A stretch of 64,000 bases of DNA from an uncultured Rickettsiales bacterium (lineage in GTDB: Bacteria; Pseudomonadota; Alphaproteobacteria; Rickettsiales; SXRF01), in NCBI GenBank assembly GCA_964518725.1, contig CAZFKP010000015.1, forward strand, positions 1,450-65,449. The letters are read 5' to 3'. Under the pieces are notes generated by a model. It was not told where the DNA came from. It saw only the letters and a list, made by a program, of their open reading frames with translations, and made no database searches. Positions 6,729-60,637 of this stretch are shown one piece after another. Made by a program: the position numbers and the translations under genes. Position 1 is the stretch's first letter. Every line of letters begins with the position of its first letter.

Positions 6729-7222
6729 AATTCGCACCGCTTATCGCCTTGTTCCTGATCTGCGCGCTGCTCGCCTATGGGCTGGTCGGCAAGAGCAGTA
6801 CCCCAACCCCATCGCCGCTTATCGGCAAGCCGCTGCCGGCCTTCACGGTCGGCGACCGGAACCTCGACGACCTGCTCGACGGACACACGGTGGTGCTGAA
6901 TGTCTTTGCCAGTTGGTGCGCCCCCTGCGCGCTCGAACATCCGCAATTGATGACGCTAAAAGCGCAGGTGCCGATCATCGGCATCGCCTGGAAAAACAAG
7001 CCGGGCGAAGTCACCGCATGGCTTACACGGCACGGCAACCCGTATGCCTCGCTGCTGATGGATGAGATCGGAGAGTCGACCATGCCGCTTGGGCTAACCG
7101 GCGTCCCGGAAACATTCGTCATCGCCCCGGACGGAATTGTCGCCTACCATACGGCGCAGCCAATTACCGCTGAATTGTTGGCAAGCGATATCCTGCCGCT
7201 GATTGAAAGGCTGGAGCCATGA
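6725..7222 (+). CDS. ccmG: Thiol:disulfide interchange protein CcmG/DsbE
   Basis: MKFAPLIALFLICALL anchor, thioredoxin fold with the WCAPC active site and the GVPETF motif. The start overlaps the ccmF stop. Confidence 0.9.
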   Translation: MKFAPLIALFLICALLAYGLVGKSSTPTPSPLIGKPLPAFTVGDRNLDDLLDGHTVVLNVFASWCAPCALEHPQLMTLKAQVPIIGIAWKNKPGEVTAWLTRHGNPYASLLMDEIGESTMPLGLTGVPETFVIAPDGIVAYHTAQPITAELLASDILPLIERLEP

Positions 7223-7683
7223 AATACAATCCCGTCATTGCGAGCGTAGCGCGGCAATCCATTTTTGCCTTCTCCGGCGTGAAAAGAGGATGGATCGCCG
7301 CGTCGCTGGCACTCCTCGCGATGACATTTTTCTCAACGCCCGCTGCCGCGCTCACCATCGACCAGCCGCTTCCCAACCCGGCGCAGGAAACCCGCGCCCG
7401 CGCGCTGTTCCAGGAGCTGCGCTGTGTCGTCTGCCAGGGCGAGAGCGTGGCCGATTCCCCGGCGGATGTCGCCGCCGATATGCGCCGCGCCGTGCGGCAG
7501 GCGGTCGCCCGGGGAGAAACCGACGAGACCATAAAACAAACGTTTGTGGCGCATTACGGGGAACGGGTGCTGATGCTGCCTAGCTTCCGCGAAGGCAATC
7601 TGCCGCTCTGGCTTGCGCCACTCGTATGCCTGCTGGTGGGGGGTGTGTTTGCATGGCGCCGCCTGTTTGGGAGGCAGTCATGA
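7219..7683 (+). CDS. ccmH: Cytochrome c-type biogenesis protein CcmH
   Basis: LRCVVCQGESVADS (LRCxxCQ) motif and a C-terminal TM helix. The ATG at 7219 overlaps the ccmG stop (ATGA) and follows a ggag RBS. Codons 6-36 are encoded by repeat copy B. Confidence 0.85.
   Translation: MKYNPVIASVARQSIFAFSGVKRGWIAASLALLAMTFFSTPAAALTIDQPLPNPAQETRARALFQELRCVVCQGESVADSPADVAADMRRAVRQAVARGETDETIKQTFVAHYGERVLMLPSFREGNLPLWLAPLVCLLVGGVFAWRRLFGRQS
7234..7325. repeat. Nested-palindrome repeat element, copy B (inside the ccmH 5' coding region)
   Basis: gtcattgcgagcgtagcgcggcaatccat...ggatggatcgcc...ctcctcgcgatgac has the same terminal and inner inverted repeats as copies A and C. Confidence 0.7.
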
Positions 7684-8291
7684 TCCAGCTGGCCGCCGCG
7701 CTTGTCCTGCTCCTTCTGATAACACTGGCGCTGTTGCTGTTCCCGTTGCGGCACGAACGCAGGCTGTGCATCCTTGCTGCGCTGGCCGTTACATTCGTGG
7801 CGGGCGGGATGTATGCGCTGGTCGGCGCACCGCGTGTGGTGCCGCTGGTCGCACAATATCATGCGGAGGTTGCGGCGCTGGAAAAGAACATCCAGACCAC
7901 CCGTGCCCTGGTGCAGGCCAACCCAAAGAACCTTGAAGCATGGCTCACACTGTCGCAGGCGCTGATGGACAAAGGCGATTTCGCCGCCGCCAGCGAGGGA
8001 TTCAAGCAGGCGGTGCTGCTTTCCAAAGGCCACCCTCGGATTATCGCCGCCTATGCCGAAGCCCTCATCCTCCAGCAGGGCGGGATGGTGCCGCCGCAGG
8101 CCAAGAAGTCCATCGACATCGCGCTGATGATCGACCCGCAATTGCCGCTGGCGCGCTATTACAATGCGGTGTGGCTGCTGCAGGAAGGTCGCAACGACGA
8201 AGCCATGCAGGAAATGAAAGCGCTCTACCGCGAGCTGCCGGACGATTCAAACTTAAAGAAGCGGATGAAAGCGCAGATCGGCGCGAAGTGA
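7680..8291 (+). CDS. ccmI: CcmI/CycH-like TPR protein (short form)
   Basis: N-terminal TM helices followed by TPR-like repeats (...NPKNLEAWLTLSQALMDKGDFAAASEGFKQAV...). It sits last in the ccm operon and its ATG overlaps the ccmH stop. At 203 aa it is shorter than the CcmI proteins I recall. Confidence 0.6.
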   Translation: MIQLAAALVLLLLITLALLLFPLRHERRLCILAALAVTFVAGGMYALVGAPRVVPLVAQYHAEVAALEKNIQTTRALVQANPKNLEAWLTLSQALMDKGDFAAASEGFKQAVLLSKGHPRIIAAYAEALILQQGGMVPPQAKKSIDIALMIDPQLPLARYYNAVWLLQEGRNDEAMQEMKALYRELPDDSNLKKRMKAQIGAK

Positions 8292-10074: not shown

Positions 10075-10620
10075 TCATAGGCCGCAAGCCCGGTTTCCCG
10101 GAAAGTGAGTCGGATGGCGCTCAGCGCCTCGTTGATGTCCACCGACGCTCCGGTCTGGATGGAAATGCAGATATGGCGATTTTTTTTTGGGATCGTTATC
10201 TACCATGCCAAGCTCATTGACATTGACTGCTTCGATACGCGAAATCCCGGCGCGCTCCAGCGTCTCCATTTCATGTGGGTAAGGGCCTTCACCCCCGGCC
10301 TTCATGGCATTGAATTGTTTGGCAATCAGCAGGTTTTCTTCGTCGCAATCGAGCACATATTCCAGTTTGCCAGAATGATAGGCCGGATCGTCCTGTAGCA
10401 GGTTAAGGACGGAGACAATCCCGCAATTAATAATATTTTTTCCATGTTGTTTCCCAGGGGCATTGTGGCGGACGGAATGTACAAACGGCGTTGAGCAGGC
10501 GCGGATGCTGCATCCCATCATGTCGTGATCCAATGGCGTAATATTGTTGTCCACCCGCTTATCACCCCCCTGAAATTGCTTGTTGCAACAGGCTACAAGC
10601 CATAATAAAGATACACCCAT
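10075..10620 (-). CDS. Hypothetical lipoprotein
   Basis: 181-aa ORF with the lipobox-like N-terminus MGVSLLWLVACCN. GC is lower (about 47%) and I recognise no family. The last 30 or so codons lie in GC-rich sequence and may be read-through. Confidence 0.45.
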   Translation of the reverse strand: MGVSLLWLVACCNKQFQGGDKRVDNNITPLDHDMMGCSIRACSTPFVHSVRHNAPGKQHGKNIINCGIVSVLNLLQDDPAYHSGKLEYVLDCDEENLLIAKQFNAMKAGGEGPYPHEMETLERAGISRIEAVNVNELGMVDNDPKKKSPYLHFHPDRSVGGHQRGAERHPTHFPGNRACGL

Positions 10621-42127: not shown

Positions 42128-43346
42128 GGGATGTCCGCTTGTCCCGCAGGTTGACAGCCATCAGCATGCCAATCGGCATCCAGAAAATAATCCAGAACGG
42201 CCCGGCATTACGAATGACGCGGTTTTGATCCGTGATACCCACGCAAAGCGCGTGCAACAAGAGTGCAGTAGCAAGAAAATACATATATTTCCCCTTATTG
42301 TCTTGAGGGGGAGAGCGATAAATACTCAGGCATAAAACGGTAAACAGGTAGAGTGCAGCCGGAATACCTGCATAAAACGCCGTTGAAAGATAGATATTAT
42401 GCGGGTTGTCCCTATTCTGCGCCCCGATTTCTGCCGGTGTTTCCAGATTGGCGCTCCACCCATAACCAAACCATGGGTGAGCAATAATTTTCTCAAGCGT
42501 TTGTTTCCATATCTCGATTCTAAATGACAGCCCACGAGCAAGCATACGGTCATAACGCTGCATCAGCATGTCGTGAATGGTCGGATTATAGATCGATACG
42601 CACACAATAACCGCGAGCAGGATAATAGAAATCAACAGGGTTTTCTTTGATTTTACGGCGCTGATGGCCAGCCAGCCAAACGCAACCAACAAATACATAA
42701 TCGTGCTAACCCGGGTTTCCATCAAAATCAGCATGTAACCGATCAAACAAAACACCATCACATAGAACGGTTTTAGTTTTTTGGTTGTAGTCGTTTCATA
42801 AAGATACAGAATAATCATCGCCGCCATTGTGTACATGTAGGCTGCAACGGTCGGGATATTGGCGCGACCAATCGGGATAAGCCGCAAATTCTGGTATTTT
42901 CCATGATAATTGTACAGGATAAGCGATACGATCGCGCACGCCAACACAGCCAACACCAAGAAATTAAAGAACCGGACGAGATGTTTTTCTTCGATGTATG
43001 CAAAATAGATAATGGTGCCGATCAGGAAGGCGACAATCGCCAGTACATGGTTGATCGTTTTCGCAAATTGTACCGCGCCGTCATTAATAAAAATGGCGTG
43101 GATCATGACGTAAATAAAAAAGACAGAATAAGCACGCAAAAGCGGCTGGCGCGCAATGACCGTAATGCGATCCTTGTGCTGAAATCCATAGTACAGCGAA
43201 GCTGGCAAAAGAAGCCCATAAAATGCGAGCGTAGTAAAAAATCCACCCGTTACGGTATATTGCACCAGGATAAACAGTTCATAGGCAATAAAAAAAAGCG
43301 GTAGCTTCAGATGCTCTCTTACTTTACTTTGCAGTGATTCTGGCAT
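42120..43346 (-). CDS. O-antigen ligase / O-antigen polymerase family (Wzy_C) membrane protein
   Basis: 408 aa with about 11 TM helices and a periplasmic loop ...RGLSFRIEIWKQTLEKIIAHPWFGYGWSA...HNIYLSTAFYAGIPA... typical of the RfaL/Wzy_C family. Confidence 0.78.
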   Translation of the reverse strand: MPESLQSKVREHLKLPLFFIAYELFILVQYTVTGGFFTTLAFYGLLLPASLYYGFQHKDRITVIARQPLLRAYSVFFIYVMIHAIFINDGAVQFAKTINHVLAIVAFLIGTIIYFAYIEEKHLVRFFNFLVLAVLACAIVSLILYNYHGKYQNLRLIPIGRANIPTVAAYMYTMAAMIILYLYETTTTKKLKPFYVMVFCLIGYMLILMETRVSTIMYLLVAFGWLAISAVKSKKTLLISIILLAVIVCVSIYNPTIHDMLMQRYDRMLARGLSFRIEIWKQTLEKIIAHPWFGYGWSANLETPAEIGAQNRDNPHNIYLSTAFYAGIPAALYLFTVLCLSIYRSPPQDNKGKYMYFLATALLLHALCVGITDQNRVIRNAGPFWIIFWMPIGMLMAVNLRDKRTSHD

Positions 43347-48628: not shown

Positions 48629-48893
48629 GCGGCTCCTTTATGGTCTCTACGACGATGTCGCCCTGTGGCGATAACAACAGTAAATGCTCCTGTCCGTCGC
48701 GTTTGACCAGCACTAGTTTGCGTCGTGCATCGAGCATCCTGCTTTCAATCACCTGCAAGCGACCAACGCTACCAGCGGACAGCCACCCTGGTTTTTTTTG
48801 CGCCAGATAGCGCAGCCCAAGCGCGCACATGCCGATCAGCGCCAGGACGACACCGAAGGCCACGACGATACGAATGGGATCAACGACGTCCAT
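48621..48893 (-). CDS. fliO: FliO-like flagellar export protein
   Basis: 90 aa with a single TM helix (IVVAFGVVLALIGMCALGL), then ...LQVIESRMLDARRKLVLVKRDGQEHLLLL.... It lies immediately upstream of fliP with an overlapping stop/start. Confidence 0.6.
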   Translation of the reverse strand: MDVVDPIRIVVAFGVVLALIGMCALGLRYLAQKKPGWLSAGSVGRLQVIESRMLDARRKLVLVKRDGQEHLLLLSPQGDIVVETIKEPHA

Positions 48894-51171: not shown

Positions 51172-51438
51172 ATGGAAGCTTCCGAAGTCATTGATATCTG
51201 CCGCGAGGCGATCTATGTGCTGATTATTGTCGCCTCTCCGGCGATGATCTCGTCACTCATCGTCGGCCTGATCGTTTCCCTGTTTCAAGCGCTGACGCAG
51301 ATCCAGGAACAAACCCTCACCTTCGTGCCTAAAATCCTTGCCATGCTGCTGGTGTTGGGACTGACCCTACCCTTCATGTTGCAGCAGCTTACCGACTTCA
51401 CCCACAAGCTTACTGAACGCATCGTCAATATTCAATGA
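51172..51438 (+). CDS. fliQ: Flagellar export apparatus protein FliQ
   Basis: 88 aa with ...SLFQALTQIQEQTLTFVPKILAMLLVL.... Confidence 0.93.
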   Translation: MEASEVIDICREAIYVLIIVASPAMISSLIVGLIVSLFQALTQIQEQTLTFVPKILAMLLVLGLTLPFMLQQLTDFTHKLTERIVNIQ

Positions 51439-52199
51439 CACTGAACGACTTCATGTTGTCGCAGATATTCACCTTCCTGCTGATATTCTGCCGGGTTGGA
51501 ACAGCGATCATGATTATGCCAGGTTTTGGGGAAGCCTATATCAGCGCCCGCATGCGCCTGCTTTTCGCCGCGATGTTCGCAGTGGTGTTGACGCCCGCCA
51601 TGCAGTCTTTTCCTGCCCCGCCTGAAACGACCTTCGGGCTGGTCAATCTGATGACTGCCGAACTGCTCACCGGCTTGTTTTTTGGCACAATCACCCGCCT
51701 GCTCATTTCCGCCATCAGCCTCGCCGGCATGATTATCGCCTATCAATCAAGCCTTGCCAGTGCGCTGGTGCAGGACGTGACGATGTCCGGCGGACAAGGC
51801 ACGAGCCTCGGTAACTTGCTGGGGATCAGCGCGCTGGTGTTGATGTTTGTCACCGACATGCATCATATGATGTTACGTGCCATCCATGACAGTTACCAGA
51901 TATTTGCCGTCGGCGCGTTTCCGCTAATTGAGGATTTTAATACCCACGCCACCCGCGTGATGAACGAATCGTTCCTCGTGGCGCTGCAGCTTTCCGCACC
52001 ACATATCGTCATCGGCCTGATGATTTACCTCGCGGGCGGTATCATTGGCCGCCTGATGCCAAGCCTGCAGGTTTTCTTCATCCTAATGGCGCCACAACTT
52101 ATCATCAGTTTTTTTATCTTGATGATTACTTTCGGCGCGCTGATGACATGGTACCTCGATTACTTCAGCCGCAATCTTCTCCATTTCGTGGGGCAATAA
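51435..52199 (+). CDS. fliR: Flagellar export apparatus protein FliR
   Basis: 254-aa polytopic membrane protein with FTFLLIFCRVGTAIMIMPGFGE. It overlaps the fliQ stop. Confidence 0.9.
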   Translation: MTLNDFMLSQIFTFLLIFCRVGTAIMIMPGFGEAYISARMRLLFAAMFAVVLTPAMQSFPAPPETTFGLVNLMTAELLTGLFFGTITRLLISAISLAGMIIAYQSSLASALVQDVTMSGGQGTSLGNLLGISALVLMFVTDMHHMMLRAIHDSYQIFAVGAFPLIEDFNTHATRVMNESFLVALQLSAPHIVIGLMIYLAGGIIGRLMPSLQVFFILMAPQLIISFFILMITFGALMTWYLDYFSRNLLHFVGQ

Positions 52200-52202
52200 G
52201 CC

Positions 52203-53273
52203 ATGGCTGAGGGCGAAGACCAGGATCAGAAGACAGAGGAACCAACCTCCCGAAAACTTCAGGAAGCCTTTGAAAAAGGTAATGTACCGGTCTCGAAGGA
52301 AGTTGGCAGTTTCCTGATGTTATTTTTGCTGGCGATGATTGTCGCATCATATGCACCGGGCATCCTGAATGAAACCCGCAACATGCTCATCTCATTTATC
52401 CGCAACGCCGATAATATTCCCGTGGATAAAATGGGTGTCAGCGCCATATTTCGCCAGCTCTCCCTGAACTCAATTGCGATTCTTACCGTGCCGCTCCTCG
52501 GATCAGTCATTGTCGCGCTTGCTGCCGGGTTATTGCAAAACGGCATTGTGATTTCCGCCGAGAGTATCAAGCCGAAGCTGAGCAAAATCTCACCACTTGC
52601 CGGGCTAAAACGTATTTTCTCAATGCGTACCGTGGTTGAATTCATCAAAAACATTACCAAAATCACCATCGTCGGAATTGTGGCATTCATGGCGGTTTAC
52701 CCGGAGTTACACCAGATTCAAACCTTGCCGGGCGATAGCGGCGAGGCCATTTTACTTTTCCTCGCCAAGCTTGCCACACGACTAACGGTTGGCGTTGCGA
52801 TAGCGATGTTTTTTATTGCCCTGTTCGACCTGGTATACCAACGGCTGCACCACACGAAATCACTGCGTATGAGCAAGCAGGAAATCAAAGATGAATACAA
52901 GCAAAGCGAGGGCGATCCGGTTATCAAGCAGCGCTTGCGGCAATTGCGGCAGGAAAAAGCCAAACAACGGATGATGTCGGAAGTGCCGAAATCGGATGTC
53001 GTAATCACCAACCCAACCCACTTCGCCATCGCCCTCATCTATCGACCGATGGAACATAAAGCGCCGATTGTCGTTGCCAAGGGGCAGGATTTAATTGCCC
53101 TCAAAATTAAGGAGATTGCGGAAGAAAATGACGTGCCGGTGGTGCAGAACCCACCGCTTGCCCGCGCCCTCTTCTCCTCCACCGAAATTGACGATGAAAT
53201 CCCCCTCATCCATTATGAGGCCGTGGCTAAAATCATCTCCTACGTCTACCAGCTCAAGGGGCGCCGTTTGTGA
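52203..53273 (+). CDS. flhB: Flagellar export apparatus switch protein FlhB
   Basis: 356 aa with the N-terminal DQKTEEPTSRKLQEAFEKGNVP, the MSKQEIKDEYKQSEGDP region and the NPTH autocleavage site (VITNPTHFAIAL). Confidence 0.93.
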   Translation: MAEGEDQDQKTEEPTSRKLQEAFEKGNVPVSKEVGSFLMLFLLAMIVASYAPGILNETRNMLISFIRNADNIPVDKMGVSAIFRQLSLNSIAILTVPLLGSVIVALAAGLLQNGIVISAESIKPKLSKISPLAGLKRIFSMRTVVEFIKNITKITIVGIVAFMAVYPELHQIQTLPGDSGEAILLFLAKLATRLTVGVAIAMFFIALFDLVYQRLHHTKSLRMSKQEIKDEYKQSEGDPVIKQRLRQLRQEKAKQRMMSEVPKSDVVITNPTHFAIALIYRPMEHKAPIVVAKGQDLIALKIKEIAEENDVPVVQNPPLARALFSSTEIDDEIPLIHYEAVAKIISYVYQLKGRRL

Positions 53274-53431
53274 CACACTGTCACACAAAATTTAACATTA
53301 TGAAATATAATGATATTTATTTGAGCCATTCTGTGAAGCAGGTGATGTTGCTGTCATAGAATCTTCATACTTCCCAAGTAATAAGCATGCTATATTAGTG
53401 ACATGGTAATGATGGCTTGGAAAGGCTTGTT

Positions 53432-55630
53432 ATGGTAAGAGAGACAGCGGATTGGCACAAGAACAAAGGCTTGGGCGGCGAAAATTTTGGCACACAGGCT
53501 CGCGAACAAGCCGATAGGCTGATGGGCAAAGCCGACCCGCGCCGCGACCCGCAACAGGCTCAAGCAAGCCTGCCTGCTGAATCGCTTGGCAATCTTGGGT
53601 TCCTATCGCCATCCGCCCCCGCTTCCGCACCAACACGGCTTCCGGAAACAATTATCGATAAAAGTAATCTCGCCCTGTTGAGTGCGGTAGAGCACCAACG
53701 TCAGCAGGCAAAAATATTTTCCCAAGGCAAATATGCCTGGGCATCGGAATTCTTTGGGGAAGGTGAAAGCCTGCCCAGAAGCAATGATTTAAAATCAATT
53801 GACCTTGCCGGTGCAGAAGAGCTGAGAATTTTTTCCGGATTACCAATTCAAAGCGAGAACGATGGTGACGTCAAGCAGTGGATGGCCTATGGAACGGATA
53901 AGCTCCTCACTAGCACAAACGATCTCGTTAGGAATATTGAGGACAAACAAAAACGCGAAGGCGGCGCGCAATATGACGCCATTCTTGGAGAAGCAAGAAA
54001 AGCTGCTGAGGCCGCAAGCAAACTTGAGCGTGAAAGGCTTAGAATCGAAACAGAATACCAAAGAAGTTTAGACGGTCTTGCCACGCGGTCAGAAGAGGCA
54101 GAATGGAACACCCTAGAGCTATCGCTAGATGAACAGGAAAAGGCTAGAGAAAGGCTCAATCAAGAAAGACGTGAATTAAACGAACGCTACCGCGCTGATA
54201 TGTATGCGCTGCTCGACCAGGCGCGCGATGCTACGCAAAATTATAAGGTTGCCGAAGCAAAAAGAAACCTGGCGGATGCAGAATTGACCGGTGATGTCGA
54301 TAAAATTGCGGATGCCCAGTATGCGCTGCGCCAACAGGTCGAGATGCGTAACTTGACTAAGGATGCAGGAACGAGTGCCGCAGCTGACTCCAAGAACGCG
54401 GCTCAGTATCAGGCCGATATCAAAGCTGGCGAGGCAGCACGTCAGGCGCTTCGTGCACAAAAAATAGACGAGTTTGTTGCCGGTGTCACACCACAAATCC
54501 AAGAAGAATATAAACAAAAAATCTCGGCGGCCAGATTAAAATTCAGTACCAGCCCCGATCAGGCGGATGAAGCAGTCAAAGACCTTGAACAACAACGCAA
54601 CGCGCTTTTAAAGCGCTTGGCAGACAAGGGAAAAGATGAACAGCTTGCCAGCCAGATGGAATTCATCACCGAACGGCTCAATAATAACGAACCTCCCCTG
54701 TCTGAGGCCGGCATTAAAGACGCCCGCAGCCGCATGATTGTCGCTGCCGCAGAATACAAAGGCGATTCACGCGATTTTGCGAGCCACTTCTTTTCCAATG
54801 ATCTGGATCTCGCTGCCACCATGGCGCCGGTAAAAATCGGTGGGTTGCAGGGCACCCTTATCACTAGGGATAAAAATGGCGATAAAAATGCCGGGATGGT
54901 TAGCATCAATCCGAAGGATGTTGCTGAAATTAAAATTGTTGGCCAGGGTGAGAATGCTTACGTGGAAGTTATGACCAGAGGAGGTCGAGGCAACTTCATC
55001 CGCGTCACGGGTAGCGCGGCGGAGAAAATGATTAAAAATGGCCTTGATCTTTCCGATACGACCGGTGCGGTACTGGTCACCGTCGATATGAGCACAGGCA
55101 TAGGCTATGAAGGGCGCAAACTTGTACTGCTCGGAACGAATGGGCACGACATTCGCCTGAATTCAAGCGGTGGAATACAATTAGGTACACTTGATGTCAA
55201 TCCCGAAGGCAGGGCGAATATGTTTGCCGCTGTCCAGTCGGTAGGAGACAGCGACCCGAGCATTGCCGAACGTGCCGGCAGGAGCATGCTTAATGCCCGT
55301 ATCGCCGCTGCCAAAAAACAACACAGCTCCGGAAAGTACATGATGGCGCGGCTGGACGTTGATAATGACGGCCGCCTATCTGGCGATGAGCTGGCGCTGC
55401 TAGATGCGAACGGCGACAACCAACTTGATAAGCGCGAGCTTGCCGCAATCTCAGGAGCACTCTCTGGGATACAGGGGGCGGGATTAAAACAGCTTCAGGA
55501 TCTCAACAAGGGAACCCTGACGGCAATTGATATTGCTACGCTTGGCGATGTCATGTTGCCAAGTGCACGCGGCAAGCCAGACCAGCAGCTTGCCCAGAAC
55601 AACGTGTCACCAGTCAGACCCCGCAGATAG
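53432..55630 (+). CDS. Large coiled-coil protein with a C-terminal EF-hand pair (uncharacterised)
   Basis: About 732 aa; the ATG is at 53432 and the ORF opens at 53417. It has long E/K/R/A/Q-rich helical stretches. Two canonical 12-residue Ca-binding loops, DVDNDGRLSGDE and DANGDNQLDKRE, lie at nt 55355-55438. Confidence 0.6.
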   Translation: MVRETADWHKNKGLGGENFGTQAREQADRLMGKADPRRDPQQAQASLPAESLGNLGFLSPSAPASAPTRLPETIIDKSNLALLSAVEHQRQQAKIFSQGKYAWASEFFGEGESLPRSNDLKSIDLAGAEELRIFSGLPIQSENDGDVKQWMAYGTDKLLTSTNDLVRNIEDKQKREGGAQYDAILGEARKAAEAASKLERERLRIETEYQRSLDGLATRSEEAEWNTLELSLDEQEKARERLNQERRELNERYRADMYALLDQARDATQNYKVAEAKRNLADAELTGDVDKIADAQYALRQQVEMRNLTKDAGTSAAADSKNAAQYQADIKAGEAARQALRAQKIDEFVAGVTPQIQEEYKQKISAARLKFSTSPDQADEAVKDLEQQRNALLKRLADKGKDEQLASQMEFITERLNNNEPPLSEAGIKDARSRMIVAAAEYKGDSRDFASHFFSNDLDLAATMAPVKIGGLQGTLITRDKNGDKNAGMVSINPKDVAEIKIVGQGENAYVEVMTRGGRGNFIRVTGSAAEKMIKNGLDLSDTTGAVLVTVDMSTGIGYEGRKLVLLGTNGHDIRLNSSGGIQLGTLDVNPEGRANMFAAVQSVGDSDPSIAERAGRSMLNARIAAAKKQHSSGKYMMARLDVDNDGRLSGDELALLDANGDNQLDKRELAAISGALSGIQGAGLKQLQDLNKGTLTAIDIATLGDVMLPSARGKPDQQLAQNNVSPVRPRR

Positions 55631-55687
55631 CGACAAGATAGAGAAAAAACAGTTGTCTATCCGCTATTAATTCCCTACACAGGGAGT

Positions 55688-56710
55688 ATGGCTATTCGTT
55701 ACAGCGACATGGGAATTGATGCAATCGGCGCACGGGACTTTGTTGCCCGCCAGCGCACGCCTACTATGGCTCAATTGGTAATCATCATCCTCAGTGCATT
55801 CCTAATCGGGGCAAGCCTCGTTGTCTCAGTACACAACATATTGGCGCTTCTTACCACTCTGTTTGCCTTGTTCGCCGCCATCGGCTGGTACGTCATCTAC
55901 CAGCTCATGCGTTACCGCGACATGCTACTGGTTACGGAATTCCAGAATGCCCTGTTTGCATCTGCCATGGGACTGCATAATAAATTTTGCCTGATCATTA
56001 AACGCGACGGTTCGATTATCTATCTCGATCGCTCATTCCAGAATTTATTTCCGGATTTTGCAAAGCAGCCCGTCCGCAATCTTGATGTGTTACTTAAACA
56101 CGGCAAAGTAGAGAAAGTAGATATTGATCGAGTGCAGGGCGCCATTGAACACGGCACCTATGAGAAGGTCGTCTTTAACATTACCGATGCCCAGGGCATC
56201 ATCCACAATGTTATCTTGTCCGTGGAGCCGATCATGCGCCCGTCCGGCTTTACCATGCTGCGTGGCCGTGAGTTCGTTGAAGAACGTAGCGTTAACAACA
56301 TCACCGCTAACGGGAATAATGTTTTCAGTAAATCCTCTATGACGCTTTTTTCCCATATCATCGAGAGCCTCAAAATGGGTGTATATATCAGCTCTCCAAC
56401 GGGCGTGATTGTTTATTGCAATCCGCTGCTTGAAGAATGGCTGGGCTATGGCGAGGGTGAGATCGTTTCCCGGAATTTAAGTATCAACAATCTGATTCCT
56501 GTCGGCAGGAATGATAACATGTCTACCGAACCGGTGGATGTAGAAGGTTCTGTGCAAATGGAACGCAAAGTTGGTGGGTTTATCAAAGCATTCTTAAACC
56601 AGCGCGTTATCTATAGTGATACGGGTAAACTTATTGGCTGCACGGCAGTCGTGCACCTGTATCACGACGAAGCTGACAAAAACCTCGATGTAAAAAAAAA
56701 GACCTTCTGA
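55688..56710 (+). CDS. cckA: CckA-like sensor module (2 TM helices plus two PAS-like domains), upstream half of a split kinase gene
   Basis: 340 aa with TM helices LVIIILSAFLIGASLVVSV and LLTTLFALFAAIGWYVIY, followed by two PAS-like blocks. It ends ...DKNLDVKKKTF* right after an A9 run. Confidence 0.65.
   Translation: MAIRYSDMGIDAIGARDFVARQRTPTMAQLVIIILSAFLIGASLVVSVHNILALLTTLFALFAAIGWYVIYQLMRYRDMLLVTEFQNALFASAMGLHNKFCLIIKRDGSIIYLDRSFQNLFPDFAKQPVRNLDVLLKHGKVEKVDIDRVQGAIEHGTYEKVVFNITDAQGIIHNVILSVEPIMRPSGFTMLRGREFVEERSVNNITANGNNVFSKSSMTLFSHIIESLKMGVYISSPTGVIVYCNPLLEEWLGYGEGEIVSRNLSINNLIPVGRNDNMSTEPVDVEGSVQMERKVGGFIKAFLNQRVIYSDTGKLIGCTAVVHLYHDEADKNLDVKKKTF
56692..56700 (+). other. A9 homopolymer at the junction of the two CckA-like ORFs (candidate frameshift or slippage site)
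   Basis: The sequence gatgtAAAAAAAAAgacc was counted directly. The downstream ORF frame is open back to 56677 and lies at -1 relative to the upstream ORF. Confidence 0.8.
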
Positions 56711-56718
56711 AGCAACCG

Positions 56719-58278
56719 ATGACGAACAGTTCTAGCAGTTCTGAAAATATCCTCGACCAATTCATCGCGTTGTCGCCCATTCCCATGGCCTTGTTAGATA
56801 AAAAAGGCACCCTCCTGTTTGGCAACCATGCATTCCATGCGCTGACGCAGCGTACGCTGACCAATGCTTTGCCCATTTATTTTGAAACACTATTTACTCC
56901 GGACAAACAGGAAGAAATGCGTGCACGTATCGCACAATTCAGCCAAGGGCATATCACCAACGAACCGGTGATACTCGAGCTAACCCTTCCCAACCGCGGA
57001 GAGATGATTATATCTTGCTATGCAAGTGAATTCAGCGAATCGCATATTCTTCTTCACCTGATCAATATCACGGAGCAGAAACACCTCGAACTGCGTTTTG
57101 CCCATTCACAAAAAATGCAGGCAGTGGGTCAGCTGGCCGGTGGCGTTGCTCACGACTTTAATAACCTTCTGACGGCAATGATTGGTTTCTGCGACCTGCT
57201 GCTCATGCGTCACCCAGCGGGAGACCAGTCGTTTGCCGATATCATGCAAATCAAGCAGAATGCTAACCGTGCGGCCAACCTTGTGCGTCAGCTACTGGCT
57301 TTCTCACGCCGGCAAACGCTGCAACCCAAAGTCGTCGACCTTACCGACGTGCTTGCGGAAATTTCTAACCTCGTGCGGCGGTTGATCGGCGAAAATATTG
57401 AACTAAAGATGTTTCATGGCCGCGATATCAGCAATATACGCGCCGATCAGGGGCAACTCGAACAGGTGCTGATTAACCTTGCGGTCAATGCCCGTGATGC
57501 GATGAAAGGTGGCGGTACACTGACTATCCGCACCTCGGAACGTGTGATTGACAAGCAGCACCGGCTTACAGCGGATATGATTGCACCGTCTGATGAAGAT
57601 AACGAACTTCCGGTAGGACGTTATGTGCTGGTAGAAGTCATCGATACGGGATGTGGCATTCCGCAGCACATTATCCAGAAAATATTCGAACCGTTCTTTT
57701 CTACCAAAGAAATCGGTTCCGGCACCGGCCTCGGGCTTTCCACGGTCTATGGCATTATCAAGCAAACTGGCGGCTATTTATTTGTGTCCAGTAAGGAACA
57801 AGCCGGCACTACCTTCAGCCTCTTTTTCCCGGCAGTCGCCACCGAAGAAGTCGCTGCCGAGAAAGCCAGCGAACGTGAAGCGGCACAGCGCGAAACCCAT
57901 CAGGATCTCACCGGAAACTGTACAATCTTGCTGGTGGAAGACGAAATGCCGGTACGCACGTTTGCAGCGCGGGCACTCGCCAACAAGGGCTATAAGATTA
58001 TCGAGGCCGATTGCGCCGAGACTGCGTTGGAATTGATGCAGGAACATGGCAACCTAGTGGAGATGATCGTAACCGACGTTATCATGCCTGGCATGACAGG
58101 TCCTGCCATGATTGAGAAAATCATGCCGAACTTCCCCAACATCAAGGTTATTTTCATGTCCGGCTACGCCGAAGAGGCCTTTGTGGATAATTACGGGGCA
58201 GACCGTGATTTCAATTTTCTTGCCAAACCGTTCACACTCAAGCAATTAGCTGGAAAAGTGAAAGAAGTGCTGGGATAA
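56719..58278 (+). CDS. cckA: CckA-like hybrid histidine kinase (PAS, HisKA, HATPase_c, REC), downstream half
   Basis: 519 aa with the H-box GGVAHDFNNLLTAMIGFCDLLL, ...IMQIKQNANRAANLVRQLLAFSRRQTL..., the N-box LINLAVNARDAM, G-boxes DTGCGI and GTGLGLS, and a receiver domain ILLVEDE...DVIMPGMTG...KP. Confidence 0.85.
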   Translation: MTNSSSSSENILDQFIALSPIPMALLDKKGTLLFGNHAFHALTQRTLTNALPIYFETLFTPDKQEEMRARIAQFSQGHITNEPVILELTLPNRGEMIISCYASEFSESHILLHLINITEQKHLELRFAHSQKMQAVGQLAGGVAHDFNNLLTAMIGFCDLLLMRHPAGDQSFADIMQIKQNANRAANLVRQLLAFSRRQTLQPKVVDLTDVLAEISNLVRRLIGENIELKMFHGRDISNIRADQGQLEQVLINLAVNARDAMKGGGTLTIRTSERVIDKQHRLTADMIAPSDEDNELPVGRYVLVEVIDTGCGIPQHIIQKIFEPFFSTKEIGSGTGLGLSTVYGIIKQTGGYLFVSSKEQAGTTFSLFFPAVATEEVAAEKASEREAAQRETHQDLTGNCTILLVEDEMPVRTFAARALANKGYKIIEADCAETALELMQEHGNLVEMIVTDVIMPGMTGPAMIEKIMPNFPNIKVIFMSGYAEEAFVDNYGADRDFNFLAKPFTLKQLAGKVKEVLG

Positions 58279-58373
58279 ACCACACGGCATTCGTTTAAAA
58301 GTTTACCTGCATTTTATATAAATCATTCAGATAGTTAATCGATGATTTATGCCTTATTGTTACAATTGTACTC

Positions 58374-58847
58374 ATGCAACACAAGCCAACGATTATTCTG
58401 CTATCGTTGCTCTATTTAGTAATGGAGATGGAAGTGGCATGGTCGCAGACCACACGCTCGCCCCAGCCGATTGAAAATTTTACCCGCAGTATTTCAGAAT
58501 ATTACCAGGCGCTCAGAAAATGCCAGAACGCCAGCGATAACCCTGCCAATATCGAAGCCGACATTAAGCGCATTCAGGAATATATGGCGAAGCTTTACCG
58601 TGAAGGCATACCTTATTGGGCACTGCCCGAACCAAATAAATTAAGTGATGATGAAAATGCCTGCAATTACTTGTTGTACCAAAGCGTCATACGCTACCAG
58701 CAGGCACGCAATGAATACGCACGGCAATATCCACGGGCAGTAATGCCGCCGAACTTTACCATCAAGCCACCCAGAAATTACCAGCCATCCAAAGAGCGTA
58801 TCTACAATGCCGATGATACTGTCCGGGATGTCGAATTTTCATGGTGA
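58374..58847 (+). CDS. Hypothetical secreted protein
   Basis: 157 aa with an N-terminal signal-like segment (PTIILLSLLYLVMEMEVAWSQ). I recognise no family. Confidence 0.45.
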   Translation: MQHKPTIILLSLLYLVMEMEVAWSQTTRSPQPIENFTRSISEYYQALRKCQNASDNPANIEADIKRIQEYMAKLYREGIPYWALPEPNKLSDDENACNYLLYQSVIRYQQARNEYARQYPRAVMPPNFTIKPPRNYQPSKERIYNADDTVRDVEFSW

Positions 58848-58888
58848 TTTTATCTTGATCCCTTCATGGTAGCGATTACCATGAAGAA

Positions 58889-59542
58889 ATGTCATGGCTG
58901 GAACCTGTCGACCAATATTGTGAACGGCTGGATGCATCGTGGTTCTCCGAACCGCTGAACGCAGCAAGCAATCTGGCATTCTTGATTGCCGCATGGCTGC
59001 TTTATCGTCTGTACCATACGGCTCCGAAGCCTAATCCGGCATTTCCGCTAGTGATTCTAATTGCCGTAGTCGGCGTTGGAAGCACGCTGTTCCATGTATT
59101 CGCCAATAAGCTGACGATGCTTGCCGACGTCCTACCCATCGCGATGTTCGTATTTATGTATCTCTGGCTGGTGCTGCGTTACCTGGCAGGATGCAGTAGA
59201 TTGCAATCCGCCATGTGCCTTGCCGGCTTTGTCATACTGGCGATCGCCGCTGAAAACATCCCCACCCCTTACCGTCTGAACGGCTCAGTATCCTACGCGC
59301 CATGCTTACTGTCTTTGCTATTGCTGGCGGCTTACCTGCGCCACCGTAACCGCAATGCCTCCCGTCTGTTGCTGGTGGCGGCAATGATTTTCGCCATATC
59401 TCTGACTTTCCGCAGCATCGATATGGTGCTCTGCGATGCCGTGCCATCCGGAACCCACATTTTATGGCATCTACTGAACGGAATCGTACTTTATTTGCTC
59501 GGCAAAGCCGCGATGTTCCACGCCCGCAAACCATCGAAATAG
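58889..59542 (+). CDS. Ceramidase-family (alkaline ceramidase/CREST-like) membrane protein
   Basis: 217 aa with 6-7 TM helices. The N-terminus EPVDQYCERLDASWFSEPLNAASNLAFLIAA resembles the ceramidase-family pattern (DxCE...aEp.Nt.SNl.F). Conserved His residues lie in later helices (TLFHVF, ILWHLLN). Confidence 0.55.
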   Translation: MSWLEPVDQYCERLDASWFSEPLNAASNLAFLIAAWLLYRLYHTAPKPNPAFPLVILIAVVGVGSTLFHVFANKLTMLADVLPIAMFVFMYLWLVLRYLAGCSRLQSAMCLAGFVILAIAAENIPTPYRLNGSVSYAPCLLSLLLLAAYLRHRNRNASRLLLVAAMIFAISLTFRSIDMVLCDAVPSGTHILWHLLNGIVLYLLGKAAMFHARKPSK

Positions 59543-59602
59543 CCATTGCATGGCGTGGTAAAACGTGTAAATCTTTGGCAAATCATTTTCATGGGGGATG
59601 CA

Positions 59603-60637
59603 ATGGATAAGAATAAAGCACTTGAAACCGCACTCAGCCAAATCGAAAAAGCCTTCGGTAAAGGCTCGATCATGAAGCTCGGTGACACCGCGAACGCCGA
59701 AGCCATGGAAGCCATCTCCACCGGCTCGCTGGGGCTGGATATTGCGCTCGGCATCGGTGGGTTGCCGAAAGGCCGCGTCGTGGAAATTTACGGCCCGGAA
59801 TCGTCGGGTAAAACCACCCTCACCCTGCATGTCATCGCCGAATGCCAGAAAAAAGGTGGCACCTGCGCCTTCATCGACGCCGAACACGCGCTCGACCCGG
59901 TCTATGCCAAAAAACTCGGTGTGAATATCGACAACCTCCTCATTTCACAACCCGATACCGGCGAGCAGGCGCTCGAAATCACCGATACACTGGTTCGCTC
60001 AGGCGCTATCGACCTGATCGTGGTCGATTCCGTGGCCGCGCTCGTGCCGAAAGCCGAGATTGACGGCGAGATGGGCGATTCCCACATGGGCCTGCAAGCG
60101 CGCCTCATGTCGCAGGCACTCCGCAAGCTCACCGGCAGCATTTCGCGCACCAACTGCACCATCATTTTCATCAACCAGATCCGCATGAAAATCGGTGTGA
60201 TGTTCGGCAACCCGGAGACCACCACCGGCGGCAATGCACTGAAATTCTATGCTTCCGTGCGCCTCGACATCCGCCGCACCGGCAGCATCAAGGATAAGGA
60301 AGAAGTCGTCGGCAACACCACCAAAGTGAAAGTCGTGAAAAACAAAGTGGCGCCCCCCTTCCGCCAGGTGGAATTCGATATCATGTATGGCGAAGGCATT
60401 TCCAAGGTCGGCGAACTCATCGACCTCGGCGTGAAAGCCAATATCGTCGAAAAATCCGGCAGCTGGTTCTCTTACGGCAGCGACCGCATCGGCCAGGGCA
60501 AGGAAAACGCCAAGCAATATTTGAAAGACAACCCAACGGTGGCCGCTGACCTTGAGAAAAAGATCCGCGACAATGCCGGCGCCATCAGCAATGCGCTGAA
60601 AGGCGAGGAAAAAGAAGTGGCGGAGGATGCGGCGTAA
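59603..60637 (+). CDS. recA: Recombinase RecA
   Basis: [28 protein letters not shown]..., Walker [10 protein letters not shown], ...IDAEHALDP.... The ORF opens at 59546, and 59591 is an alternative ATG. Confidence 0.97.

Follow-up and report, generated by a model that had tools for sequence, protein, structure and literature searches.

Introduction

The master cell-cycle kinase of Alphaproteobacteria, CckA, is regarded as one membrane-tethered polypeptide, whose membrane and polar density and whose PAS domains determine the balance between kinase and phosphatase output. Few conserved recoding sites lie in non-mobile cellular genes; they include those of dnaX, prfB, copA and some Shigella type III secretion genes. 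Programmed transcriptional realignment is a mechanism of T. thermophilus dnaX, Shigella mxiE and IS elements. Here we analyzed the cckA locus on a 64,000-nucleotide stretch of DNA from an uncultured Rickettsiales bacterium (assembly GCA_964518725.1, contig CAZFKP010000015.1, positions 1,450 to 65,449 of the forward strand; the whole stretch is called the window). The gene is interrupted as two open reading frames (ORFs), ORF1 (cckA-N) and ORF2 (cckA-C), with a run of nine A (A9) near the end of ORF1. We propose, with a probability of roughly one half, that this is a stable, translationally coupled split cckA with an inherited slippage site that would give some full-length CckA alongside both pieces.

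In Caulobacter CckA, PAS-A responds to surface density and PAS-B to cyclic di-GMP (PMC4853435). The Caulobacter and Brucella proteins have the same domain order as the locus described here, namely transmembrane (TM) segments, PAS, a DHp domain with the H-box, CA and the receiver domain (REC). Unlike those proteins, CckA in the window, as in an entire uncultured clade, comes as two polypeptides, with the cut in the linker that precedes the last PAS domain. There are three PAS folds here versus two in Caulobacter CckA, and the lone kinase core would be soluble. Our literature searches found no paper on a split cckA or on recoding in cckA, nor any paper under the accessions of the two SRA runs used below, and the main text of the recoding survey by Antonov et al. 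(PMC3711429) names no histidine kinase.

The tau and gamma products of dnaX come from -1 programmed ribosomal frameshifting (PRF) at A_AAA_AAG in E. coli, from transcriptional slippage on A9 in Thermus thermophilus, where about 50% of the product is slipped (PMC1088944), and from a two-ORF gene with A10 in Chlorobi. A_AAA_AAG is listed among PRF motifs, and transcriptional realignment uses A runs longer than seven (PMC3711429), nine nucleotides being the length from which many genomes avoid such runs (PMC1088944). The cckA site is likewise an A9 to A10 run or a heptamer in a housekeeping gene, with a long and a C-terminally truncated product predicted and with a slipped frame that stops almost at once. 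As in dnaX, orthologues occur in both one-ORF and two-ORF registers (PMC1088944, PMC3711429), the two-ORF form of dnaX carrying A10 (PMC3711429). Unlike dnaX, cckA belongs to a sensor kinase family, the downstream half of its split form has its own start, no stimulatory hairpin or Shine-Dalgarno (SD)-like element was found, and the slippage is predicted from sequence.

The IS3 and IS1 transposases, in which OrfAB is made from orfA-orfB by -1 PRF at A_AAA_AAG or A_AAA_AAC, likewise have their second ORF at -1, a heptamer close to the end of the first ORF and three possible products (A, B and the AB fusion). Unlike these elements the cckA locus is not mobile, its ORF1 stop lies only two codons past the heptamer and many of its relatives lack the heptamer. 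The locus also resembles ordinary fission with translational coupling (the 'TC' clusters of Antonov et al. 2013), in that the ORF2 start lies at most 10 nt from, or overlaps, the ORF1 stop across genera. It differs from the 'TC' clusters in that some lineages maintain a slippery run, down to its synonymous sites, at the point of fission, and fused relatives retain it too.

Results

The two ORFs described by the initial annotation were recovered from the ORF listing at the same coordinates and 8 nt apart (Table 1). The nine A, the -1 (+2) frame of ORF2 relative to ORF1 and the opening of that frame back to position 56677 were all reproduced as well. Because the ORF1 frame reads GTA AAA AAA AAG ACC TTC TGA at the junction, it contains an A_AAA_AAG heptamer. 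The layout is that of a -1 PRF site, in which an X_XXY_YYZ heptamer lies in the upstream frame and the downstream ORF is at -1, its frame being open across the heptamer, and the coding strand carries an A run of the length given for realignment, about nine or more (threshold from PMC1088944). Either a -1 shift or one added A leads to ...DVKKKDLLKQPMTNSS..., a joined product of 863 aa. The single protein of about 860 aa suggested by the initial annotation therefore held, and its VKKKK junction was corrected to three K rather than four.

Judged by profile and structure matches, ORF1 and ORF2 together are cckA severed in the linker ahead of the final PAS domain. The AlphaFold2 model of ORF1 (pLDDT, a per-residue confidence score, 82.8 for the whole model) has helices at residues 27-47 and 51-94 (pLDDT about 90) followed by two PAS folds. 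Pfam found a single PAS in ORF1, the count of two coming from the model, and a Foldseek search with the model returned tandem-PAS proteins. The earlier description of ORF1 as two TM helices and two PAS modules is thus supported. In ORF2 the HisKA, HATPase and REC domains were found by Pfam, and the two motifs quoted previously were located, the H-box motif AHDFNNLLTAMIGFCDLLL at residue 144 and QLLAFSRRQTL at residue 191. On the NCBIfam CckA (Brucella) profile of 868 positions the two ORFs were colinear, ORF1 aligning to positions 15-271 (31 bits) and ORF2 to positions 341-867 (588 bits), and ORF2 scored 489 bits with the NCBIfam Caulobacter CckA profile. Both ORFs fall short of the NCBIfam equivalog cut-off of 1000 bits, which presumes a full-length protein from a specific lineage. 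The top solved-structure matches of ORF2 were Caulobacter CckA 5IDJ (E=1.4e-68) and 5IDM, with 6TNE also matched. ORF2 therefore has the core features of CckA, a DHp H-box, a CA domain, a C-terminal receiver and a best profile match to CckA. It retains a PAS domain aligned to Caulobacter PAS-B, and the TM hairpin and the two upstream PAS folds lie on the other ORF, so that CckA is not a single chain here. The assignment of the gene as cckA, interrupted as two ORFs with the frame change located at A9, was confirmed.

The split was found to be widely shared. The closest homologues of ORF2 were 66-81% identical, about 515 aa long and present in dozens of clusters, some on contigs of 1-2 Mb; full-length CckA relatives (840-870 aa) were 44-53% identical to ORF2. 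The ORF1 search gave at least 120 clusters, and every listed one was a stand-alone protein of 330-350 aa with 37-73% identity at near-full coverage. DNA of relatives was drawn from GTDB genomes, JGI metagenomes and exact-protein look-ups, and every junction was scored. The same break was present in the 32 split lineages for which DNA was obtained, 31 relatives plus the window, with ORF2 at -1 in 15, at +1 in 9 and in frame behind a stop in 8. The ORFs typically met in TGATG, TAATG, TAGTG or TAAATG overlaps or across gaps of 1-9 nt, and in nearly all split relatives the ORF2 start overlapped or adjoined the ORF1 stop. Relative L003 has the 8-nt gap and -1 frame of the window without the homopolymer, L004 has an in-frame TAG at the junction and no run, and in L109 the ORF2 ATG lies 8 nt downstream as it does in the window and L003. 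No promoter or terminator signal above the shuffled expectation was seen at the junction, and an internal promoter or terminator was rejected as a candidate.

Compared with L003 and L004, the nonsynonymous rate (dN) was 0.24-0.27 for ORF1 and 0.12-0.14 for ORF2, and the synonymous rate (dS) exceeded 1.3 or was saturated, rates that indicate that both halves are under purifying selection. The 8-nt gap, the conserved arrangement and a dN far below dS in both parts are the features of a translationally coupled split. These comparisons indicate that cckA is here a stable two-cistron gene of long standing. The possibility of a real split raised by the initial annotation is strongly supported by the conserved two-ORF arrangement, and the premise that CckA is a single polypeptide fails in this clade. 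Since ORF2 has its own starts, the frames are mixed and several relatives lack the homopolymer, the kinase half can be expressed without slippage.

In crude neighbor-joining (NJ) trees most of the split genes fell in one large clade of metagenome-assembled genomes (MAGs) labelled 'Rickettsiales' or 'Alphaproteobacteria'. At least two further groups are split at the same linker, a second group of L011, L012, L014, L015 and L017, and separately L008 and L020. Fission at this linker seems to be recurrent and to have happened more than once, as judged from the trees. In the second group the ORF1 tails end ...GA*, ...AA* or ...IL*, no A-run is present and the frames are 0, +1 or -1; L008 and L020 each stand alone as split genes within fused branches of the trees. 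An intermediate fused form was also observed at L005:3290-5536 (P0002, 729-748 aa) and in P0028, P0088, P0092 and P0113 (723-735 aa), in which the second PAS is absent and an ORF2-like part follows directly on the ORF1 TM region and first PAS (query residues 1-201).

The homopolymer was then compared codon by codon. Seven split lineages (the window, L085, L086, L108, L109, L110 and L111) carry xxA AAA AAA AAG (A9G), the codon ahead of the lysines being GTA in six and TCA in one. In the same alignment column the fused genes L007, L101 and L115 have GTA AAA AAA AAC (A9C) and the fused gene L114 has GTA AAA AAA AAA G (A10G). The heptamer is accordingly A_AAA_AAG in the seven split lineages, A_AAA_AAC in three fused genes and A_AAA_AAA in one, and it is missing from about 25 other split lineages. 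Ten lineages have a run of exactly 9 and one has a run of 10, and the preceding codon always ends in A (11/11). Because the split KKK loci without the run are broken thoroughly by AAG codons (AAG AAA AAG, AAA AAG AAG or AAG AAG AAG), run and no run are two discrete states.

The 11 run-bearing lineages share 25-69% protein identity in the N-terminal part. At identical residues their codon identity equalled the codon-usage expectation (0.57 for two-fold codons and 0.33 for Val), and in each of 15 fully conserved degenerate columns more than one codon occurs among the 11 loci. Although GTA accounts for about 10-25% of Val codons, all 10 loci with Val before the run use it, for which the chance is about 1e-7 at p=0.2 per locus. 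The wobble A before the run is conserved though a ribosomal heptamer does not need it. This pattern of codon use argues that the run, including the preceding wobble A, is under nucleotide-level selection in these lineages.

Conservation of the site is partly at the protein level, because the KKK motif is shared by ORF1 tails and fused linkers. Among the clusters listed, ORF1-like C-termini end in KKKx[WF] in 47 of 120 and have W or F as the last residue in 111 of 120, and the [DG][VL]KKK motif is also present in the inter-PAS linker of fused relatives. In the ORF1 frame of split relatives the Leu, W and stop codons past KKK vary synonymously, so the end of the short ORF1 product is a selected protein end. 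Two broader ideas were rejected. A KKK tail kept purely by nucleotide constraint does not fit, as KKK[LT][WF] is also a protein motif and the L and stop codons vary synonymously; a recoding signal common to all split relatives does not fit with frames of -1, +1 and 0, with Lys codons mixed in about half of the KKK loci or with the lack of a run in L003 and L004.

The run was also compared with the reading frame of ORF2. ORF2 was at -1, with the frame open across the run, in 7/7 split loci with A9G as against 8/25 split loci without the run (hypergeometric C(15,7)/C(32,7) = 0.0019, uncorrected for phylogeny). The VKKKLW loci P0149 and P0156 were also at -1, as read by gene coordinates only. In the fused genes the register that would be reached by +1A or -1 stops 1-2 codons past KKK in all 4 loci. 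The hidden register of L007, L101 and L115 reads VKKKL-stop (CTC TGA, CTC TAA and CTT TGA), and that of L114 reads VKKK-stop with A9 (-1A) and VKKKSN-stop with A11 (+1A). Past the run, L007, L101 and L115 differ by substitutions that alter residues of the main frame (S/F, E/N) yet keep the Leu-stop of the hidden frame. Slippage in the fused genes would thus yield a short protein ending near the stand-alone ORF1 (VKKKLW or VKKKTF), and slippage in the split genes would yield the long protein.

A separate A9G was seen in a distant lineage, L034:3235-3345 (JBIPLF010000058.1, a 'Rickettsiales' MAG from Lake Mendota; 52% identity in ORF2 and 28% in ORF1), where GCA GAA AAA AAA AGC lies in the same linker with the kinase half at -1. 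This locus has no start codon ahead of the conserved PAS region, and full-length CckA there would need A10; it represents either slippage-dependent expression or a sequencing error.

Discussion

We propose that ORF1 is translated to a membrane-anchored TM-PAS-PAS protein and ORF2, from its own ATG and probably coupled to ORF1 termination, to a soluble kinase core. In a fraction of events RNA polymerase would add an A on the nine-A template, or the ribosome would shift -1 on A_AAA_AAG, and the slipped product would read ...DVKKK-DLLKQPMTNSS... to give a membrane-tethered CckA of 863 aa. This fusion would be about 95 kDa, and the peptides QPMTNSSSSSENILDQFIALSPIPMALLDK and the semi-tryptic DLLKQPM... 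would be exclusive to it. On this reading the run is no error or accident, having been inherited from fused ancestors and retained by nucleotide-level selection. Fused relatives would use the opposite register, with full-length CckA from standard decoding and the short ...VKKK(L) from slippage. By analogy with Caulobacter, the split would part tethering and density sensing from the catalytic core, and a tunable fused fraction would keep some kinase tethered. Because stimulators were not found and the wobble A is conserved, transcriptional slippage is somewhat more likely than a stimulated ribosomal frameshift. We offer as a tentative proposal, held at a little under even odds, that in this uncultured alphaproteobacterial clade the inter-PAS linker carries an ancient programmed A9/A10 site specifying two products, full-length CckA and a membrane-anchored protein with PAS domains only that ends ...VKKK(L/LW/TF), with lineages differing only in their default register, and that slippage at this site bridged to repeated fission.

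Several observations weigh against a functional slippage site. Slippage was inferred by comparing DNA sequences, and run-bearing DNA was obtained for 11 lineages only. Shared ancestry could account in part for the association of A9G with the -1 frame. When the 70 nt downstream were folded in the 7 A9G loci, no common structure emerged (z from -2.1 to +1.6), and inspection of the same 7 loci found no upstream SD-like stimulator. Many split relatives have lost the run, the close L003 and L004 among them, and some have an in-frame stop or a +1 arrangement; the fused product is thus dispensable in such relatives. According to the initial annotation a conserved two-gene arrangement without a homopolymer would mean a stable split with no slippage involved. 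Such arrangements were indeed found (L003, L004 and many other loci), and by that criterion cckA is a stable split. The slippage idea survives in a stronger form than the window by itself could show, as A9G is kept at synonymous sites in 7 split lineages, all with ORF2 at -1, and A9 or A10 at the same linker position in 4 fused ones, a pattern that points to selection on the slippery run. The part of the idea that made the kinase half depend on slippage was not upheld.

The interrupted frame has simpler potential causes. One more A restores a continuous frame and homopolymers are error-prone on some platforms, and the initial annotation had raised the possibility that the true genome has A10 and one ordinary 863-aa cckA. 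This is very improbable and was ruled out as a candidate: Logan assemblies of the separate runs SRR12816580 and SRR12816581 have A9 and both proteins identical to the window, so that three assemblies agree, and other 8-9 nt runs of the window (T9 at 10180, A8 at 22046, A8 at 43290 and T8 at 48792) lie inside unbroken ORFs, with no homopolymer-associated ORF break seen elsewhere in the window. In the closest relatives cckA is cut at the same site, for some of them with no run present, the TF-stop tail of ORF1 is conserved as protein in relatives, and the ORF2 ATG has the position seen in L003 and L109. A decaying pseudogene, in which a frameshift-inactivated cckA is being lost, would likewise explain the interruption and is scarcely credible. 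It was dropped because dN is far below dS and the halves are conserved in relatives, in more than 100 clusters; both halves and all catalytic motifs are intact, and neither a dN/dS near 1 nor any further disruption, as decay would require, was seen. Split cckA pairs should not be 'corrected' or marked as pseudogenes. A DNA-level contingency locus, at which slipped-strand mispairing between A9 and A10 toggles split and fused cckA, has in its favor that poly-A tracts are hypermutable (PMC1088944, PMC3711429) and that A9 (A9G, in the window) and A10 (A10G, in L114) both occur among related lineages. We consider such phase variation unlikely, since the site is A9 in the window as well as in both independent read-set assemblies, the L114 protein is identical across 3 samples, an indel in the A9C fused genes would strand the kinase half without a start codon, and contingency loci are usually surface or restriction-modification genes, to which cckA does not belong. 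At the level of consensus sequences the run length was A9 in the window, L001 and L002 and no run-length polymorphism was seen, a weak test.

A rather doubtful but possible explanation is that the two cistrons are the sole functional products, with slippage as noise and A9 as a frameshift relic or as a sequence with another nucleotide-level role, such as an unstructured A-rich aid to re-initiation or a translational pause in the linker. The conserved break with mixed frames and many relatives without the run, the own ORF2 start codon in nearly every split relative, the failure to find PRF stimulators and the KKK motif as an ancestral linker or tail motif at the protein level all fit this explanation. 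A relic should decay, however, and GTA AAA AAA AAG is identical at 25-69% protein identity where synonymous sites are saturated, with the preceding wobble A conserved throughout. The hidden-register stop is conserved in the fused genes, and these retain the run without an ORF2 start, which weakens the A-run as an enhancer of ORF2 re-initiation.

A large clade with the membrane-PAS module and the kinase core apart is a natural experiment on tethering and on PAS-A-type sensing. Slippage mechanisms are well known; what is unusual here is that orthologues preserve the same site in both registers. If slippage occurs as proposed, a poly-A slippage site in fused and split signalling-kinase orthologues would be an added case of recoding. 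It would also give a concrete example of how one ORF can become two without ever losing either product, with programmed slippage as a bridge to fission in an essential cell-cycle regulator.

Gene neighborhood and other features of the window

The split cckA lies within a conserved gene order (Table 1).

Table 1. Coordinates of the cckA locus and its neighbors in the window
Feature	Position	Strand	Description
cckA-N (ORF1)	55688..56710	+	340 aa, TM-PAS-PAS, predicted membrane-anchored, C-terminus ...DVKKKTF-stop
TM helical hairpin	55766..55906	+	Residues 27-47 and 51-~73; AlphaFold2, hydrophobic sequence
First PAS fold	55979..56272	+	Residues 98-195; AlphaFold2 secondary structure, Foldseek tandem-PAS matches
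Second PAS fold	56330..56659	+	Residues 215-324; AlphaFold2; Pfam PAS residues 220-318, E=1.3e-7
A9 homopolymer	56692..56700	+	Sequence GTA AAA AAA AAG; slippage-prone, conserved
A_AAA_AAG heptamer, ORF1 frame	56695..56701	+	dnaX/IS3-type -1 slippery site, by codon phasing
ORF1 stop TGA and 8-nt spacer up to ORF2 ATG	56708..56718	+	Coupled stop/start junction
cckA-C (ORF2)	56719..58278	+	519 aa, predicted soluble PAS-HisKA-HATPase-REC kinase core
HisKA/DHp with H-box	57127..57315	+	Pfam HisKA residues 137-199; phospho-acceptor His145, codon 57151-57153
HATPase_c catalytic domain	57445..57834	+	Pfam residues 243-372, E=6.6e-21
REC domain	57925..58260	+	Pfam Response_reg residues 403-514; PDB 6TNE
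fliR	51435-52199		First in the conserved gene order, window 51435-60637
flhB	52203-53273		Conserved gene order
Variable 737-aa protein	53417-55630		EF-hand motifs; upstream of cckA-N
157-aa ORF			No assigned function; between cckA-C and the ceramidase-family gene
Ceramidase-family membrane protein	58889-59542		Downstream of cckA-C
recA	59546-60637		End of the conserved gene order

In many split and fused relatives (L003, L110-L115) flhB lies directly 5' of cckA and recA lies 3'. The 737-aa protein abounds in charged, coiled-coil-like sequence, and around residues 641-677 it has two weak EF-hand matches. The corresponding protein has 572 aa in L003 and 804 aa in L109; the 'LW' subclade lacks it and has flhB next to cckA-N.

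Two other repeats of the window were noted. The T9 on the forward strand at 10180-10188 is A9 in the sense of the reverse-strand ORF 10075-10620, which is apparently intact at 181 aa and has no Pfam match. Two ORFs at 7219-8291 share 58 nt around a G6 run (7638-7643); this pair was rejected as a frameshifted gene, the ORFs being ordinary separate genes for CcmH (Pfam) and a tetratricopeptide-repeat protein of the CcmI/CycH type.

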